64,000 nt of DNA from an uncultured archaeon (GCA_964421955.1 CAYQYU010000001.1:94210-158209), one strand, 5' to 3'. Numbered from the stretch's first letter, positions 5,180 to 47,259 are shown. Numbers and translations: made by a program. The notes: a model not told the origin generated them from the letters alone.

Positions 5180-5719
5180 CTACGGAGTAACCCGTTCGAC
5201 TTCATAGTAGGTGACGCCTCCTTCTGAATCCACGACACCCCATAGCATCTTTGCGCGGATGTTGTGCGCGAGTCTTACAGCGCGGGACATTTCCTGGAAG
5301 CTGAGTGTGTGGTTCTCGGGAACAGCGTGGACCACCCACTTTGTGTGCTCCTTCTGCTTCTTGGGCCCCTCCTTGTACGGGTTGACGCCTCTCGGGTAAA
5401 CGCGAAAGTGGGTGCCGAACTTGAAGCCGCTCTTCACTATGTAGCCCCTGTCTCTTAGATCGTCGTAGACCTTGTACGTGTGGTCGAACTCGTCGTCGAT
5501 CAACGAGAAACGGGAGTAAAGCTCGTCCCGGGAAAGTTCCTCCCCGTTCTCCTTGACCTCGAGTTCTTCACGGTCGACAAGGTGCATCGCCTCCACGGGC
5601 GAAAGTTCGAGGACATCGTCGTTCTGGTATTTGCCGTAGTAGAACTCCTCATATACTTCCTCCGCATCTTTTTCATCCTCTACGCGGACGCGGGATTCCA
5701 CAAGTTTTCCGGCTGTCAT
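5180..5719 (-). CDS. endA: tRNA-splicing endonuclease, single-unit (alpha4-size) type
   Basis: LSPVEAMHL, YDDLRDRGYIVKSGFKFGTHFRVY, catalytic His in EHTKW; ATG 5719 gives 179 aa. Confidence 0.93.
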   Translation of the reverse strand: MTAGKLVESRVRVEDEKDAEEVYEEFYYGKYQNDDVLELSPVEAMHLVDREELEVKENGEELSRDELYSRFSLIDDEFDHTYKVYDDLRDRGYIVKSGFKFGTHFRVYPRGVNPYKEGPKKQKEHTKWVVHAVPENHTLSFQEMSRAVRLAHNIRAKMLWGVVDSEGGVTYYEVERVTP

Positions 5720-5754
5720 ACTACTAGCGGAGCATATGAAACTTTTAAAGCTGG

Positions 5755-6336
5755 CTAGAACCAACTAGAGCCTTCTCTTTGAAGTTCAAAATTATCATCC
5801 TTGGTCTCTTCAAAGTAGTCTGACACCGTGTCGCCTCTAAGCACAGCCGCGGCCATCTCATCGAAGGCAGTTGAATAGACTAGTACATTGTCTTCCGACC
5901 CTGCAAAGCCAAAGGTGTAGGTATTAATCCCCTCCTTGTTGCCCGATACCTCTGCTAGATGCTCCGCCATCGATCCCAGAAAGTCTTCTCCAGCCTCTGA
6001 AACATATCCTCTAGTATCAAGTACGGCCTCAACATCTTCTCCAGAGAAATCATCTCGCACAGGTACTCTATAATCTATCTCAGTGACCTCATAAGAGCCC
6101 CCTAAATTACTACCGCTAACGTTAACGGACCAAGTCAACTCTTCAGCCACTAGTTCTTCAAATTCAAGATCTTCAATATCTCTTCTTACTCTCTCAGCTG
6201 GCTCAGCAATATCTTTTTCCAACTGATTCTCGTTCTTTTCCCTGCCTAGATGTGACGGGACTAGAACAATACCTCCAATACCCAGACCCAAGCCTCCAGC
6301 CACTCCCAAAGTACCAATAAGCTTTCTGCGCCTCAT
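5755..6336 (-). CDS. hypothetical exported/membrane-anchored protein with Tat-like signal
   Basis: MRRRKLIG followed by a hydrophobic Gly-rich stretch; acidic body. Confidence 0.6.
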   Translation of the reverse strand: MRRRKLIGTLGVAGGLGLGIGGIVLVPSHLGREKNENQLEKDIAEPAERVRRDIEDLEFEELVAEELTWSVNVSGSNLGGSYEVTEIDYRVPVRDDFSGEDVEAVLDTRGYVSEAGEDFLGSMAEHLAEVSGNKEGINTYTFGFAGSEDNVLVYSTAFDEMAAAVLRGDTVSDYFEETKDDNFELQREGSSWF

Positions 6337-7953: not shown

Positions 7954-8058
7954 CCGTCTATATCAGTATCTTTTAATCGATATAAATCTGCTGACCCGGA
8001 GGATTAATGGTTTAAAAGAGTGCACTCCGGTTTCGTTTTATACAACCAGCGTTTCTAT

Positions 8059-8133
8059 AGCGGGGTAGAGCAGCCAGGAGTGCTCGTCGGGCTCATAACC
8101 CGGAGGTCCGTGGTTCAAATCCACGCCCCGCTA
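8059..8133 (+). tRNA. initiator tRNA-Met (CAT)
   Basis: Cloverleaf; A1-U72; GGG/CCC anticodon stem around CTCATAA; TTCAAAT T-loop. Confidence 0.95.
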
Positions 8134-8237
8134 AAACTTCTGAAAGTTTTATCATCATAAACCATTCAATGACTGGCTTTCAGCGCTTGATCGAACTTAG
8201 CGCCTGAAGTTCGGTTCACTAATCCACGCCCCGCTAA
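8118..8237 (+). repeat. 17-bp direct repeat of the tRNA-iMet 3' end with a hairpin-rich spacer
   Basis: AATCCACGCCCCGCTAA at 8118-8134 and 8221-8237. Confidence 0.9.
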
Positions 8238-9392: not shown

Positions 9393-9526
9393 GGGCCGGT
9401 AGCTCAGTCTGGCAGAGCGCGAGGCTCTTAAACACCTCAAGTCTCCGCAGGAGACGAGGACCCAGAAAATCTCCGATTTTCGATAGAGATACCTCGTCGT
9501 CGTGGGTTCAAATCCCATCCGGCCCG
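9393..9526 (+). tRNA. tRNA-Lys (CTT) with a 60-nt intron at 37/38 (9431-9490)
   Basis: GGGCCGG/CCGGCCC acceptor; CGAGG-CT-CTT-A|intron|A-CCTCG; CTCT/AGAG central helix with 3-nt bulges. Confidence 0.93.
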
Positions 9527-9587
9527 AGATTTGATATCCTCCAGAAAATCTTCGATTTTCGTCTGGGTTCAAATCCCATCCGGCCCG
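9503..9587 (+). repeat. 24-bp direct repeat of the tRNA-Lys 3' end
   Basis: TGGGTTCAAATCCCATCCGGCCCG at 9503-9526 and 9564-9587. Confidence 0.92.
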
Positions 9588-28027: not shown

Positions 28028-28245
28028 CGCCGGGACTGGGATTTGAACCCGAAGCTCGCAGAACTGGAGCTTCTACTCTCAAATCCCGACTAGGCGTGAA
28101 ACGCCGGGACTGGGATTTGAACCCAGGAGGGCCGTCACGGCCCACCGGTTCTCAAGACCGGCACTTTTAGCCAGACTCAGTCATCCCGGCAGATTGTAAA
28201 TCTGCTGTGGATACAGAAACTCTTCAGAGTTTCGCATCCCGGCAG
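28028..28245 (-). repeat. duplications of both tRNA-Ser ends with hairpin spacers
   Basis: 23-bp CGCCGGGACTGGGATTTGAACCC at 28028-28050 and 28102-28124; 11-bp CATCCCGGCAG at 28182-28192 and 28235-28245. Confidence 0.9.
28102..28190 (-). tRNA. tRNA-Ser (TGA)
   Basis: Reverse complement GCCGGGA...CCGGT-CTTGAGA-ACCGG, long variable arm, TTCAAAT, TCCCGGC-G. Confidence 0.95.
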
Positions 28246-29769: not shown

Positions 29770-31188
29770 ATGGAACTGAAACAGGTCGACGACAACATCT
29801 ACGAAATTCCGCAGGAAGGACAGATGAAAGTGCCTGCCAGAATATACGCATCCGAGAGGCTTCTGGAAGAGATACAGCAGGATAGGACGCTTGAGCAGGT
29901 CAAGAATGTCGCGACGCTTCCAGGCATACAGAAATACTCGATAGTGCTGCCTGACGGCCACCAGGGATACGGATTCCCTATTGGCGGGGTCGCGGCAGTG
30001 GACACGGAAACGGGCGTCATAAGCCCTGGAGGTATCGGATACGACATCAACTGCGGTGTCCGCGTCCTGAAGACCAGCCTGAAGCTTGAAGATATAAAAG
30101 GAAGAGAGCAGCAGCTCGCCAACATCATGTTCAGCAAGGTTCCAACCGGACTCGGGAAAGGAGGATACATCGATATTGACAGGAACGATCTCCGGGAGAT
30201 ACTTGAGAAAGGAATGGAATGGATGCTGGAAAACGGTCACGCCCGGGAAAGCGATCTCGAGCACTGCGAGGAGAAAGGCCGCCTTGAAGGCGACGCAGGA
30301 AAGGTCCCGGACGAGGCGATTGACCGAGGACTCAACCAGCTGGGCTCACTCGGATCGGGAAACCACTTCCTCGAGGTCCAGACAGTATCAGATATCTACA
30401 GCCAGAACAAGGCGGAGGCTTATGGCCTGGAGGAAGACCAGGTGGTCGTTATGATTCATTCCGGCTCCAGAGGTCTCGGGCACCAGACCTGCACCCATTA
30501 CCTCAGGAAGTTCGAGAAAAACTACCCGGAAATAGTTGAAGAAATACCTGACAAGGAGCTGATCTACGCCCCTCTAGAAGACGAACTGGCACAGGATTAC
30601 TGGAATGCCATGAATGCGGCCGCAAACTTCGCCTGGGCTAACAGGCAGGCGATGACCCAGGCGGTCCGGGAGGCCCTGGACACTTTATTTGGCGATGTCA
30701 AGGTTGACCTGGTCTATGATGTCTGCCATAACATCGCGAAAAAGGAGATGCATGAAGTCAACGGAGAGCAGAAAGAGCTTCTGGTACACAGGAAAGGAGC
30801 AACGAGAGCTATGCCTGCAGGGAGACCAGAAGTGCCTGAAGCCTACCAAGACGTGGGACAGCCAGTACTAATTCCAGGCACCATGGGAACCTCATCCTAC
30901 ATTCTCTCGGGTGGTGAAAACTCCCTGGAAATCTCGTTCGGCTCTACTGCTCACGGCGCAGGAAGACTCAAGTCGAGAACACAGGCCAAGAAAGAGTACC
31001 GCGGCGAAAGGTTACAGAAAGATCTACAGCAGGAAGGAGTGTGCGTCAAGGCAGCCTCAGGCGAGACAGTCGCTGAGGAGGCTCCCGGCGCCTACAAGGA
31101 TGTCGACGAGGTCATCCGCGTCTCCGACGAACTCGGGATCGGAAAAAAGGTGGCGAGAATGACTCCGATCGCAAACATTAAGGGCTAG
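29770..31188 (+). CDS. rtcB: tRNA-splicing ligase RtcB
   Basis: PDGHQGYGFPIG, GYDINCG, GSGNHFLE, HSGSRG, HRKGAT, STAHGAGR, EEAPGAYK. Confidence 0.97.
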   Translation: MELKQVDDNIYEIPQEGQMKVPARIYASERLLEEIQQDRTLEQVKNVATLPGIQKYSIVLPDGHQGYGFPIGGVAAVDTETGVISPGGIGYDINCGVRVLKTSLKLEDIKGREQQLANIMFSKVPTGLGKGGYIDIDRNDLREILEKGMEWMLENGHARESDLEHCEEKGRLEGDAGKVPDEAIDRGLNQLGSLGSGNHFLEVQTVSDIYSQNKAEAYGLEEDQVVVMIHSGSRGLGHQTCTHYLRKFEKNYPEIVEEIPDKELIYAPLEDELAQDYWNAMNAAANFAWANRQAMTQAVREALDTLFGDVKVDLVYDVCHNIAKKEMHEVNGEQKELLVHRKGATRAMPAGRPEVPEAYQDVGQPVLIPGTMGTSSYILSGGENSLEISFGSTAHGAGRLKSRTQAKKEYRGERLQKDLQQEGVCVKAASGETVAEEAPGAYKDVDEVIRVSDELGIGKKVARMTPIANIKG

Positions 31189-46051: not shown

Positions 46052-46447
46052 TCAGTGCAGGATGAAGTCCAGGGCGTACATTCCCGGACCGACAAGGTAG
46101 AACATGAAAACCGCTCCAAGGAGAAGTAGATCGACCTCGTAACCGCCTGCAAACTCTTTATCCATCTTGTCAATCGCCACGTATGTTATGACACCCATGA
46201 AAAGAGTCAGCACAAGGGCGGCGACACGGGTGAAAAGACCGAGTGCAAGCATCGTTCCTGCAACCACCTCTACTCCCAGTGCGAGATAGACCAGGAATAT
46301 AGAGTCTGAAAGACCCAAGCTTGAGAAGAACTCTCTAGTGGACTCAGGGTCTTCAATCTTGGGAATCGCATGCGATACGAAAACTGCCCCGACAATTATC
46401 CGGAAGACTGCGAGTCCAAGAGACGTAAGAGCTACAGCACCCATCAT
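46052..46447 (-). CDS. DoxX family membrane protein
   Basis: RIIVGAVFVSHA..K, LGLFTR.AA, GGYE, GPG. Confidence 0.88.
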   Translation of the reverse strand: MMGAVALTSLGLAVFRIIVGAVFVSHAIPKIEDPESTREFFSSLGLSDSIFLVYLALGVEVVAGTMLALGLFTRVAALVLTLFMGVITYVAIDKMDKEFAGGYEVDLLLLGAVFMFYLVGPGMYALDFILH

Positions 46448-46531
46448 AACTACACAGAAATTGTTCAGGCCGGTTTAAAAAGACCACTTTGTCAAATGAG
46501 AGTGAAGACACCCTTCCATATACCACTAGAT

Positions 46532-46689
46532 GCCGGGGTAGCCAAGTCAGGCCAAACTCTCACGAGTTTAGCCACGAACCATCTCCTTCCGGAGAAAGTT
46601 CGAGGCCCAAAGGCTCCAAGAGGACCATAGGCGATGGATTCAAGACCCATTCCCGCAGGGGTTCGCCGGTTCAAATCCGGTCCCCGGCA
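46532..46689 (+). tRNA. tRNA-Leu (CAA) with a 73-nt non-canonical D-loop intron (46556-46628)
   Basis: Removing 46556-46628 yields GCCGGGGTAGCCAAGTCAGGCCAAAGGCGATGGATTCAAGACCCAT...TTCAAATCCGGTCCCCGGCA; BHB-like motif at the junction. Confidence 0.9.
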
Positions 46690-46779
46690 TTATTCTATTC
46701 TTCGGAGGAGAGTAAGAGCACTCAAAAAGTGTTACCTTCAAGATATAACGATTTAAAATTTCCTGTTATGTACTTGACC

Positions 46780-47259
46780 ATGACTCTGCCTCCTTCCAGG
46801 ACTATTGAAGAGTGGAACCATGCAGAAGATACGCTGAGTCCGGAAGAGTTCAAAGACCGATTAGAGGGAGAAGATCCTACTCAGGCATTTATTCGATACG
46901 AAGACGAATCCAGGCTTCAAGCAGGAGAATGGCCGGCAGTAGATGATGAAGACCTTTACGGCGCTGCGGAACTGCTTCCAGAAGAGCAGGAGTACGTGAT
47001 CAAATTCACGGACCAGCTTGTGGAGAAGAAGTTTGAGATAGGCGGCATGTTGTATGACACCCTTCAGTTTGTCAGTAGCGACGAATGGAGTTCTCAACGG
47101 CAACCAGATACTATGGCAGCTGGAGCACTCCGGTTAGCAGAAGACTATTCCCCCGTGGAGATTACACAGAAAGAAATAGCTGAGGTAGCCGACAAGTCAG
47201 CTCAGACCGTTCAAGCCGCCTACAGTGAAGCTATAGAAGAACTAGGAATAGGTCTTTGA
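46780..47259 (+). CDS. truncated TFB-like protein (single C-terminal cyclin fold/HTH)
   Basis: RQPDTMAAGALRLA..ITQKEIAEVADKSAQTVQAAYSE..EELGI resembles the TFB C-terminus. Confidence 0.65.
   Translation: MTLPPSRTIEEWNHAEDTLSPEEFKDRLEGEDPTQAFIRYEDESRLQAGEWPAVDDEDLYGAAELLPEEQEYVIKFTDQLVEKKFEIGGMLYDTLQFVSSDEWSSQRQPDTMAAGALRLAEDYSPVEITQKEIAEVADKSAQTVQAAYSEAIEELGIGL

Follow-up and report, generated by a model that had tools for sequence, protein, structure and literature searches.

Within a 64,000-nt stretch of DNA from an uncultured archaeon (the window; GCA_964421955.1 CAYQYU010000001.1:94210-158209), we identified a tRNA-Leu(CAA) gene whose D-loop is interrupted by an intron of 73 nt. This intron is an ordinary relaxed D-loop tRNA intron within a small intron family. 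We consider it likely that the gene works, that the endonuclease EndA splices the intron, and that the intron was acquired by transfer from another Leu gene. An earlier interpretation, made from the sequence without database searches (the sequence-only reading), had proposed that the intron was born at this locus out of copies of its own splice junction. The motifs it listed are all present when the sequence is re-read, including GGCCCAAAGGC at 46604-46614 and GGACCATAGGC at 46622-46632, and its assignment to a nanohaloarchaeal lineage also holds, given that the nearest relatives of the EndA are in metagenome-assembled genomes of Ca. Nanohaloarchaea (70% identity). The organism is a tiny, salt-loving archaeon, and the proteins encoded in the window are strongly acidic.

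The gene occupies 158 nt including the intron (46532-46689, + strand) and was recognized by a scan for acceptor and T-arm sequences, by the label that ARAGORN gives to the spliced product, and by the lack of a second copy in the genome. It specifies a class-II tRNA, with acceptor strands GCCGGGG/CCCCGGC, D-stem GCC/GGC, anticodon loop UUCAAGA, a long variable arm, T arm GCCGG-UUCAAAU-CCGGU, and discriminator A; the D-loop is interrupted after GGCCAA. The 5' exon (46532-46555, + strand) runs from the acceptor 5' strand to the D-loop, ends in GGCCAA, and equals the first 24-25 nt of intronless orthologues. The 3' exon (46629-46689, + strand) contains the D-stem 3' strand, the anticodon arm with CAA, the long variable arm, the T arm, the acceptor 3' strand, and the discriminator, and is 89% identical to the orthologue in genome G002. 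Deleting 46556-46628 yields an 85-nt product that ARAGORN labels tRNA-Leu(caa), in agreement with the D-loop intron that the sequence-only reading had recognized here, and the spliced D-loop, GTCAGGCCAAAGGCG, is the same as in intronless orthologues such as those of G002 and G007. That reading had also named an intact Leu-CAA gene elsewhere as a sign that this one might be an unspliced pseudo-tRNA; no second Leu-CAA gene was found in the assembly (922,649 bp, 27 contigs, 98.8% complete). Most Leu-CAA orthologues have C32 and U39, unlike the A31.C39/U32 combination of this gene and of the G011 orthologue.

Neither default ARAGORN nor Rfam reported the gene. The Arg(ccg) label given by ARAGORN in intron mode was rejected as an artefact, which arises when the program has to fit the insert into the anticodon loop. 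An Rfam search by E-value of 46300-46900 returned a single chance-level match (E = 8.3) on the opposite strand, outside the gene; we likewise rejected a C/D-box guide RNA or a group I/II intron, with no described RNA family from Rfam in or around the intron. Genes with D-loop introns escape or confuse standard tRNA finders. Three in this genome (G000) were mislabelled, the Leu-CAA gene as Arg-ccg, a Leu-TAA gene as Glu-ttc (C15:16301), and a Gly gene as Gln-ctg (C17:5064).

We placed the intron at 46556-46628 (+ strand) by the table of splice motifs described below, by the splice test, and by a relative's contig that joins 46555 to 46629; the cut can be moved one base rightward with an unchanged product. 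One strand of the central helix is GGCC (46550-46553, + strand), presumably G18 G19 C C of the D-loop, followed by a 5' bulge AAA (46554-46556, + strand) with a predicted cut after its second base (AA↓A, the arrow marking the cut), the geometry being that of the genome's anticodon-loop introns. An inner helix pairs CUCU (46557-46560, + strand) with AGAG (46619-46622, + strand), a pairing that covaries in relatives. The second strand of the central helix, GACC (46623-46626, + strand), forms three of four pairs with GGCC, the remaining one being a C.A mismatch, and would pair perfectly with GGUC. It is followed by the 3' bulge AUA (46627-46629, + strand; predicted cut AU↓A), and the 3' exon continues with GGCG from 46630 (+ strand). 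Two 3-nt bulges thus lie on opposite strands around a 4-bp helix with 3/4 pairs formed. As to the strict hBHBh' form, the intron-side helix h' is present (CUCU/AGAG, 4 bp) and the exon-side helix h is absent. Without an abutting exon-exon helix, the splice motif counts as a relaxed bulge-helix-bulge of the HBh' type.

The motif geometry was calibrated on the genome's 25 anticodon-loop intron calls, which share the anticodon stem, a 4-bp helix (bases 32-35 with intron positions -6 to -3), and 3-nt bulges cut after the second base. Their central helix is fully paired in 19 and has 3/4 pairs in six; hence, one central mismatch is not unusual in this genome. A search for sequencing runs that contain the locus returned 3 DNA runs of one study and no RNA run. 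An independent view of the borders came from run X1, in which a 759-nt DNA contig joins 46555 to 46629 exactly. Its flanks and T arm differ from those of the locus, so the contig represents the intronless gene of a relative in the same sample and neither an allele nor an excision product. No variant was seen when reads were mapped at the Leu(CAA) locus.

To place the motif in a wider context, we turned to 70 genomes from the order to which this one belongs. Matches to a 5'-junction pattern numbered nine in seven genomes, all of family f1, and its backwards control did not match at all; a second pattern (GTGGYYAA..GTGGYYAA) added Leu-CAG genes (G010 and G050) and Gly genes in four genomes. Nine of the 70 genomes have members of the D-loop intron family in Leu(CAA), Leu(UAA), or Leu(CAG) genes, and in the genome studied here the Leu(TAA) gene, the Glu(CTC) gene, and a Gly gene are interrupted at this D-loop site as well. 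Of 15 D-loop introns, three complete Gly genes included, 12 have all central-helix pairs and three have a single mismatch there. Exon position 3 and intron position 2 covary: they form C-G in 11 of 12 introns with an exon C (the exception being the C.A of the Leu(CAA) gene) and U-A in all three with a GGUC exon, while the other two one-mismatch helices (G055:C10 and the genome's own Glu-CTC) break a different pair. The combinations of exon and intron strands are GGCC with GGCC, GGUU, or GGUC; GGUC with GAUC or GACC; and GGCU with GGCU. The inner helix also varies yet stays paired (CUCCA/UGGAG, CUCCU/AGGAG, CUCUG/CAGAG, GCUCG/CGAGU, GCCCG/CGGGU, and GUCG/CGAC); it is 4-6 bp long in most of the 15 introns, and the own Gly intron has only 2 bp beside the bulge. 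This covariation supports the central pairing.

The same comparison changes the meaning of the 3'-terminal element. GGACCATAGGC consists of the motif's 3' strand plus the first exon bases, and its likeness to a direct repeat is due solely to the palindromic nature of GGCC; any D-loop G18G19 with two pyrimidines after it can pair with itself in RNA when G.U pairs are allowed. The proposal that GGCC pairs with its own copy and in this way supplies the central helix was sound. As for the two elements that it took for near-copies of the spliced junction, GGCCCAAAGGC stands as such (p = 0.004), and GGACCATAGGC is a strand that the motif requires and that covaries with the exon; its exon likeness stems from the self-complementary G18G19YY.

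Several other D-loop introns were noted. The tRNA-Gly gene at G000:C17:5065-5250 (+ strand) contains a D-loop intron of 54 nt that closes with AGTGGCTAA, nine bases identical to the end of the 5' exon; the GGCU self-pairs via two G.U pairs, and the same gene holds a second intron. Orthologous tRNA-Gly D-loop introns occur in G010, G050, and G035, the last from another family. In tRNA-Glu(CTC) at G000:C2:72457-72588 (- strand), a 57-nt D-loop intron lies at the same site (GGCC AA↓A GUCG ... CGAC GGCA AG↓U), and splicing would leave a D-loop identical to the one in the Glu(TTC) gene, which has no intron. In the Leu-CAA orthologues L015 (G009) and L025 (G039), the D-loop introns (about 67 and 200 nt) are shifted by two bases in the 3' direction (UCAA AG↓. 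... UUGA AG↓G), a separate site with a self-complementary 4-mer of its own.

The genome encodes both a splicing endonuclease and an RtcB-type ligase. EndA is a 194-aa open reading frame (ORF; 5180-5764, - strand) with one N-terminal and one catalytic domain (PF01974 and PF02778) and is the sole match in the genome; the RtcB RNA ligase is a 473-aa open frame (29896-31185, + strand; G000:C1:124105-125394; PF01139, 554 bits, E = 5.7e-167). We suggest that in the pre-tRNA the exon GGCC would pair with GACC near the intron's 3' end and leave the bulges AAA and AUA, with CUCU/AGAG stacking on the intron side. EndA would then cut after the second base of each bulge, and RtcB would join the exons to give ..GGCCAA↓AGGCG (the arrow here marking the join). 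The broad substrate range needed for relaxed motifs goes with an extra loop (L1, L2, or L3, the last in DPANN) in the catalytic subunit of EndA. In this EndA, the catalytic domain takes up 94 residues for 85 profile positions, a hint of an insert. DPANN EndAs of the alpha4 type with an extra loop accompany many disrupted tRNA genes, according to a passage of PMC5829648.

Where the intron came from is indicated by its relatives. A search of the 70 genomes with the intron alone gave one significant match, G055:C45:21904-21983 (E = 2.6e-10, 78% over 80 nt), all others having E of at least 0.049. This match sits in a tRNA-Leu(CAG) gene of another genus, a non-orthologous gene, and the alignment spans the junction, both hairpins described below, the internal junction copy, and a 3' strand AGGAG-GACC-AGA. 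The G055 gene has the exon GGUC, which forms a perfect helix with GACC. The genome's own Leu(TAA) intron lies at the same site and has the second hairpin in common with the Leu(CAA) intron. An architecture found in both the G055 Leu-CAG and the own Leu-TAA intron predates its presence in the Leu(CAA) gene, and the claim of birth at this locus fails on this homology.

Close orthologues of the gene provide a second indication. A neighbouring 119-aa ORF is syntenic in 14 other genomes, and none of the five most similar syntenic loci (68-76% in the ORF; G002, G004, G007, G014, and G006) has a D-loop intron; the tRNA gene is Leu-CAA in the first four and Leu-TAA in G006, and the exons read GGCC in G002, G004, and G007 and GGTC in G014. 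Because these close orthologues are intronless and GACC fits GGUC better than GGCC, the Leu(CAA) intron probably did not originate here but came from a different Leu gene, one whose D-loop reads GGUC. Recombination or conversion may have effected this transfer after the split from the closest relatives. The mapping of intron presence and absence that the sequence-only reading had envisaged succeeded to the extent that the five closest syntenic loci are intronless; a tree of the 119-aa ORF had one well-supported inner branch of 12, and a gain/loss count from it was dropped for that reason.

The intron interior is built from hairpins and junction copies. The stretch GGCCAAA (46550-46556), CTC-TCAC-GAG (46557-46566), and TTTAGCC (46567-46573) folds in the minimum-energy structure into hairpin 1 (46550-46573, + strand), in which the 5' junction GGC-C-AAACUC pairs with its inverted copy GAGUUU-A-GCC. 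Hairpin 2 (46575-46602, + strand; CGAAC-CA-UCUCC-UUCC-GGAGA-AA-GUUCG) was likewise taken from the fold; its stems are identical in G055 Leu-CAG and similar in the own Leu-TAA intron. The internal near-copy of the spliced junction, GGCCCAAAGGC, follows on the + strand, and G055 has GGTCAAAGGC at the corresponding position, identical to the spliced junction of its Leu-CAG gene. We scored copies against 500 dinucleotide shuffles of the intron interior, splice-motif ends excluded. The direct copy of the spliced junction scored 8.5 against a shuffle mean of 5.03 (p = 0.004), and the inverted copy of the 5' junction 8.0 against 5.0 (p = 0.012). Among nine introns of the D-loop family, the four long ones (Leu-CAA, own Leu-TAA, G055:C45, and G069) are enriched in such copies, and the five short ones (34-43 nt) have no extra copies. 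Hairpin 1 recurs with pair-keeping changes in the long relatives and in Gly and Leu-CAG introns (AAACUC/GAGUUU, AAACUCC/GGAGUUU, AAAGCUC/GAGCUUU, and AAAACC/GGUUUU). By these comparisons, the internal and inverted copies were inherited with the intron lineage, the internal direct copy from its ancestor.

For the entire pre-tRNA, the predicted folding energy is -66.5 kcal/mol (z = -4.44), which none of 200 shuffles matched. Hairpin 1 and the splice motif are mutually exclusive: in the fold constrained to form the motif, the inverted copy pairs with the internal direct copy, and otherwise GGCCCAAAGGC forms a small hairpin. This modeling suggests a switch between the hairpin 1 and splice-motif folds, in which the inverted copy would serve as a conserved hairpin partner of the 5' junction and could pair with the internal copy once the motif forms; any role of the hairpins is put forward on these folds.

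A number of observations weigh against a spliced, working gene that received its intron by transfer. The central helix GGCC/GACC carries the C.A mismatch, and the motif has no outer helix on the exon side, where AGUCA faces GGCG. In the nearest-neighbour model, the hairpin 1 fold is favoured by 7.4 kcal/mol over the motif-forming fold, and the central-helix pairs have an ensemble probability of at most 0.013. An EndA of single-subunit architecture, as found here, is classically held to need strict motifs. Leu(UAA) could decode UUG by wobble, so the Leu(CAA) gene may be dispensable, and the anticodon stem (46562-46648) has an A31.C39 mismatch (with U32), an identical combination being present in the intronless G011 orthologue (L012). 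With respect to origin, resolution is poor in the ORF tree on which the intronless relatives come out nearest, and these five relatives could have lost the intron. The mismatches in the central helix and anticodon stem, together with the less favoured splice-competent fold, are what one would cite for a decaying or unspliced pseudo-tRNA whose insert is tolerated since Leu(UAA) covers UUG. We regard that account as improbable, given that the four arms and the long variable arm show no damage, ARAGORN accepts the spliced product as tRNA-Leu, the 3' exon has kept its identity to the G002 orthologue, and the nearly complete assembly offers no other Leu-CAA gene; moreover, the 3/4 central helix recurs in six of the 25 anticodon-loop calls, and A31.C39 recurs in an orthologue that has no intron. 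Nor do we give much credence to a reading as two tandem introns, 46556-46609 (hairpin 1, hairpin 2, and GGCC-CA) and 46610-46628, removed by two-step or alternative cuts, where the first unit resembles the stand-alone Gly and G010 Leu-CAG introns and the internal copy is its 3' splice site. In its favour, the GGCC at 46604-46607 is fully complementary to the exon GGCC and has the three bases CAA next to it on the 3' side; ..TTCGA-GT-GGYY-AA is the ending of stand-alone introns of the first type; and in the clearly tandem units of G069 and G055:C45, excision of unit one recreates the junction of unit two. However, no inner helix adjoins the internal site, where CUC.. faces ..UCGA, and after a first cut the remaining 19-nt unit would lose the CUCU/AGAG helix. 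An internal cut alone (46609/46610) leaves an unusable D-loop in which ARAGORN finds no tRNA; splicing at the internal copy was rejected as a candidate on that account.

De novo birth in the Leu(CAA) gene, with the junction copied in direct, inverted, and direct orientation and palindromic GGCC giving an instantly spliceable central helix, is to our mind very unlikely. It draws on the excess of direct and inverted copies over shuffles, on exact junction repeats in relatives, and on the fact that a direct repeat of GGYY plus 3 nt yields the correct motif geometry and restores the exon on splicing. Against it, the architecture is common to the non-orthologous G055 Leu-CAG intron and the own Leu-TAA intron, GACC mismatches the GGCC exon and fits GGUC exons, hairpin 2 (~28 nt) is not derived from the junction, and the short family introns lack extra copies. 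Transfer from another Leu gene into a working tRNA-Leu(CAA) gene is the reading that we retain.

How the family itself arose is a separate question, and one tentative answer is compatible with transfer at this locus. A DNA-level insertion of a ~40-nt hairpin core that duplicates the adjoining 8-24 nt of the tRNA might seed and lengthen the D-loop introns of this lineage, although we hold this to be doubtful. G18G19YY pairs with its own copy, so a duplicated GGYYAAN automatically yields the 4-bp helix with its two bulges, and splicing returns the exon unaltered; the D-loop duplicate would thereby become a splice motif and the insert survive as an intron, with only harmless partial copies left at tRNA ends. 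The clearest case is in two genomes of one genus, where G069 differs from G024 by a 39-nt core and an exact 14-nt repeat that spans the exon-intron border. The G069 unit with its exact 14-nt internal repeat is also present in the G055 Leu-CAG gene, and to judge from the sequences the two units are one event that spread, so they count once. Exact 8-9-nt copies of the exon end close the introns of three Gly genes and G010 Leu-CAG; junction duplication in related D-loop introns, in line with the sequence-only reading, is thus real. These long-repeat cases were found by a pattern requiring the repeat, and pairs of GTGGYYAA over the 70 genomes show no raw enrichment (9 versus 22 in the backwards control; eight of the nine are tRNA D-loop introns and one is a coding repeat). 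Nine introns of the CTCY/RGAG class have no extended repeat at their true 3' end, and motif selection together with the self-complementary GGYY explains part of the likeness.

Copies at tRNA ends bear on the same model, and the earlier remark that tRNA ends are decorated was borne out. Exact copies of at least 8 nt of the tRNA 3' end lie within 200 nt downstream of 10/39 genes (3/39 in the control orientation), and such copies of the 5' end within 200 nt upstream of 4/39 (1/39 in the control). The copies stop at the mature tRNA ends, which is also expected from ordinary integrase att sites. The spacers beside them hold the intron-like hairpin GAAAAYC..GRTTTTCG, shared with introns, and inverted T-loop copies. 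The hairpin AAACTC-N3-9-GAGTTT occurs at 15 loci (30 strand hits) versus none in the backwards control, six of them in or beside tRNA genes, and integrase genes adjoin tRNA genes. No reverse transcriptase was found in the genome, which leaves an RNA-mediated route without an obvious enzyme. If the insertion model holds, direct repeats would promote tandem growth (as in G069 and G055) and exact loss, and archaeal tRNA introns would gain a concrete route of arrival.

Parallels to the Leu(CAA) intron exist in other archaea. Methanopyrus kandleri pre-tRNA-Glu(UUC) has a relaxed HBh' D-loop intron at 20b/21, according to a section of PMC5829648. Both are protein-spliced types of D-loop intron placed just after G18G19, relaxed and without an exon-exon helix; the Leu(CAA) site, 21/22 in our numbering, is in the same D-loop neighbourhood, and the own tRNA-Glu(CTC) intron also lies at an M. 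kandleri-like site. Here, in contrast, the host is Leu, the lineage is Nanohaloarchaea, EndA is single-subunit rather than (alpha-beta)2, splicing is predicted, and the intron holds inverted and direct internal copies of its junction. In Thermoproteales, similar introns spread among tRNA genes by "intron transposition" (Fujishima et al. 2010, as summarized in part of the review PMC4090602). Similar introns likewise sit in non-orthologous genes here (Leu-CAA and Leu-TAA in this genome, Leu-CAG in G055), and many of the genome's anticodon-loop introns have end modules in common. Unlike in Thermoproteales, all related D-loop copies found so far share one site and lie in isoacceptor genes for a single amino acid, which means that ordinary recombination among similar genes could transport them; the lineage, too, differs, being DPANN and not TACK. 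For Caldiarchaeum subterraneum, a model in part of PMC3293823 has introns gained and tRNA fragments formed by integration of mobile elements with att repeats. Direct repeats at tRNA ends, recombinase genes beside tRNA genes, and DNA-level arrival with a tRNA-like repeat are common to both settings. The Caldiarchaeum element is 1.9 kb, whereas the inserts here are 27-128 nt and geneless, and the repeat can sit in the D-loop and form the motif.

Asgard archaea provide the nearest recent comparison. The passages of the preprint bioRxiv 10.64898/2026.10.13.758758 that concern D-arm intervening sequences state that standard tools miss them, that gains were repeated, and that they are sited where a splice motif can form; no general copying route was found there, and the arrival route is given as unknown. 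Our data, by contrast, contain one clear case of intron copying between Leu genes. In those passages, the terms "direct repeat", "palindrom", and "de novo" are absent, and "duplicat" appears twice, about whole genes. A 2014 review, in the part relevant here, also called the entry route of archaeal tRNA introns unknown (PMC4090602). A full-text literature search found no paper that proposes D-loop GGYY self-pairing as a source of the splice motif. The family is a lead on how archaeal tRNA introns spread, as its material is readable: one intron lineage in three Leu isoacceptor genes, presence and absence that differ within a genus, a near before/after pair (G024 and G069) with the 14-nt repeat across the border, and identical hairpin modules in introns and in spacers beside duplicated tRNA ends. 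The self-pairing of G18G19YY offers a simple structural reason why the D-loop tolerates inserts of the duplication type.

We also analyzed the introns of the anticodon loop. Introns of 42-190 nt are present in 29 of the 40 ARAGORN calls in the genome, and several expected anticodons were not found among these 40. After four of the 25 anticodon-loop calls had been excluded for doubtful borders or labels (C15:16301, C12:16553, C17:1991, and C1:84446), the remaining 21 introns showed no excess of junction copies on any of four measures (Fisher p = 0.96, 0.72, 0.64, and 0.14; 1, 1, 2, and 3 of 21 introns with p < 0.05, respectively). The enrichment over shuffles that the sequence-only reading anticipated was seen, among the introns compared, only in the four long D-loop introns. 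Its hint of junction copies in the Lys intron dissolved as well: the Lys-CTT intron gave p = 0.76-1.0, and ACCTC is a start motif common to 6/25 calls whatever the exon. Many anticodon-loop introns begin with ACACC.. or ACCTC.. and carry a hairpin GAGAAAAYC-loop-GRTTTTCGA 2 nt before the central-helix strand. By sequence, the anticodon-loop introns look like one family spread over many tRNA genes, and we speculate that the tandem G.A bases flanking the GAGAAAAYC stem could be a protein-binding, k-turn-like element.

Lastly, individual tRNA loci and their neighbours illustrate the end copies. Four matches to tyrosine recombinases of the phage-integrase family were found (G000:C2:58775-59032, C6:63117-63698, C7:121-654, and C7:2243-2773); one lies directly 3' of tRNA-Leu(TAG) and has an open frame of only 106 aa, and the others lie within about 1-3 kb of tRNA-Gly(TCC) and tRNA-Arg(GCG). 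The tRNA-Lys(CTT) gene (9393-9526) has an anticodon-loop intron; 24 nt of the gene's T arm and 3' acceptor strand recur unchanged at 9564-9587, beyond a spacer of 36-37 nt, and the spacer hairpin, CCAGAAAATC-TTC-GATTTTCG, is the module found just 5' of the intron's 3' splice site. For tRNA-Ser(TGA) (28101-28191, - strand), a 23-nt copy of the 3' end lies 50 nt downstream (28028-28050), and the spacer contains GGGATTTGA, an inverted T-loop copy; upstream (about 28217-28243) are a 9-10-nt copy of the 5' end and then a hairpin AAACTC-TGAA-GAGTTT. The tRNA-Met gene (8058-8134) has a 17-nt copy of its 3' end 86 nt downstream, at 8221-8237. At L010 (G021), 5' of an intronless Leu-CAA orthologue, a 61-nt unit is repeated three times in tandem (1369-1573); the unit consists of the first 16 nt of the tRNA and 45 nt of upstream sequence, and at the start of each, the copied tRNA end and an inverted copy fold into a small hairpin.

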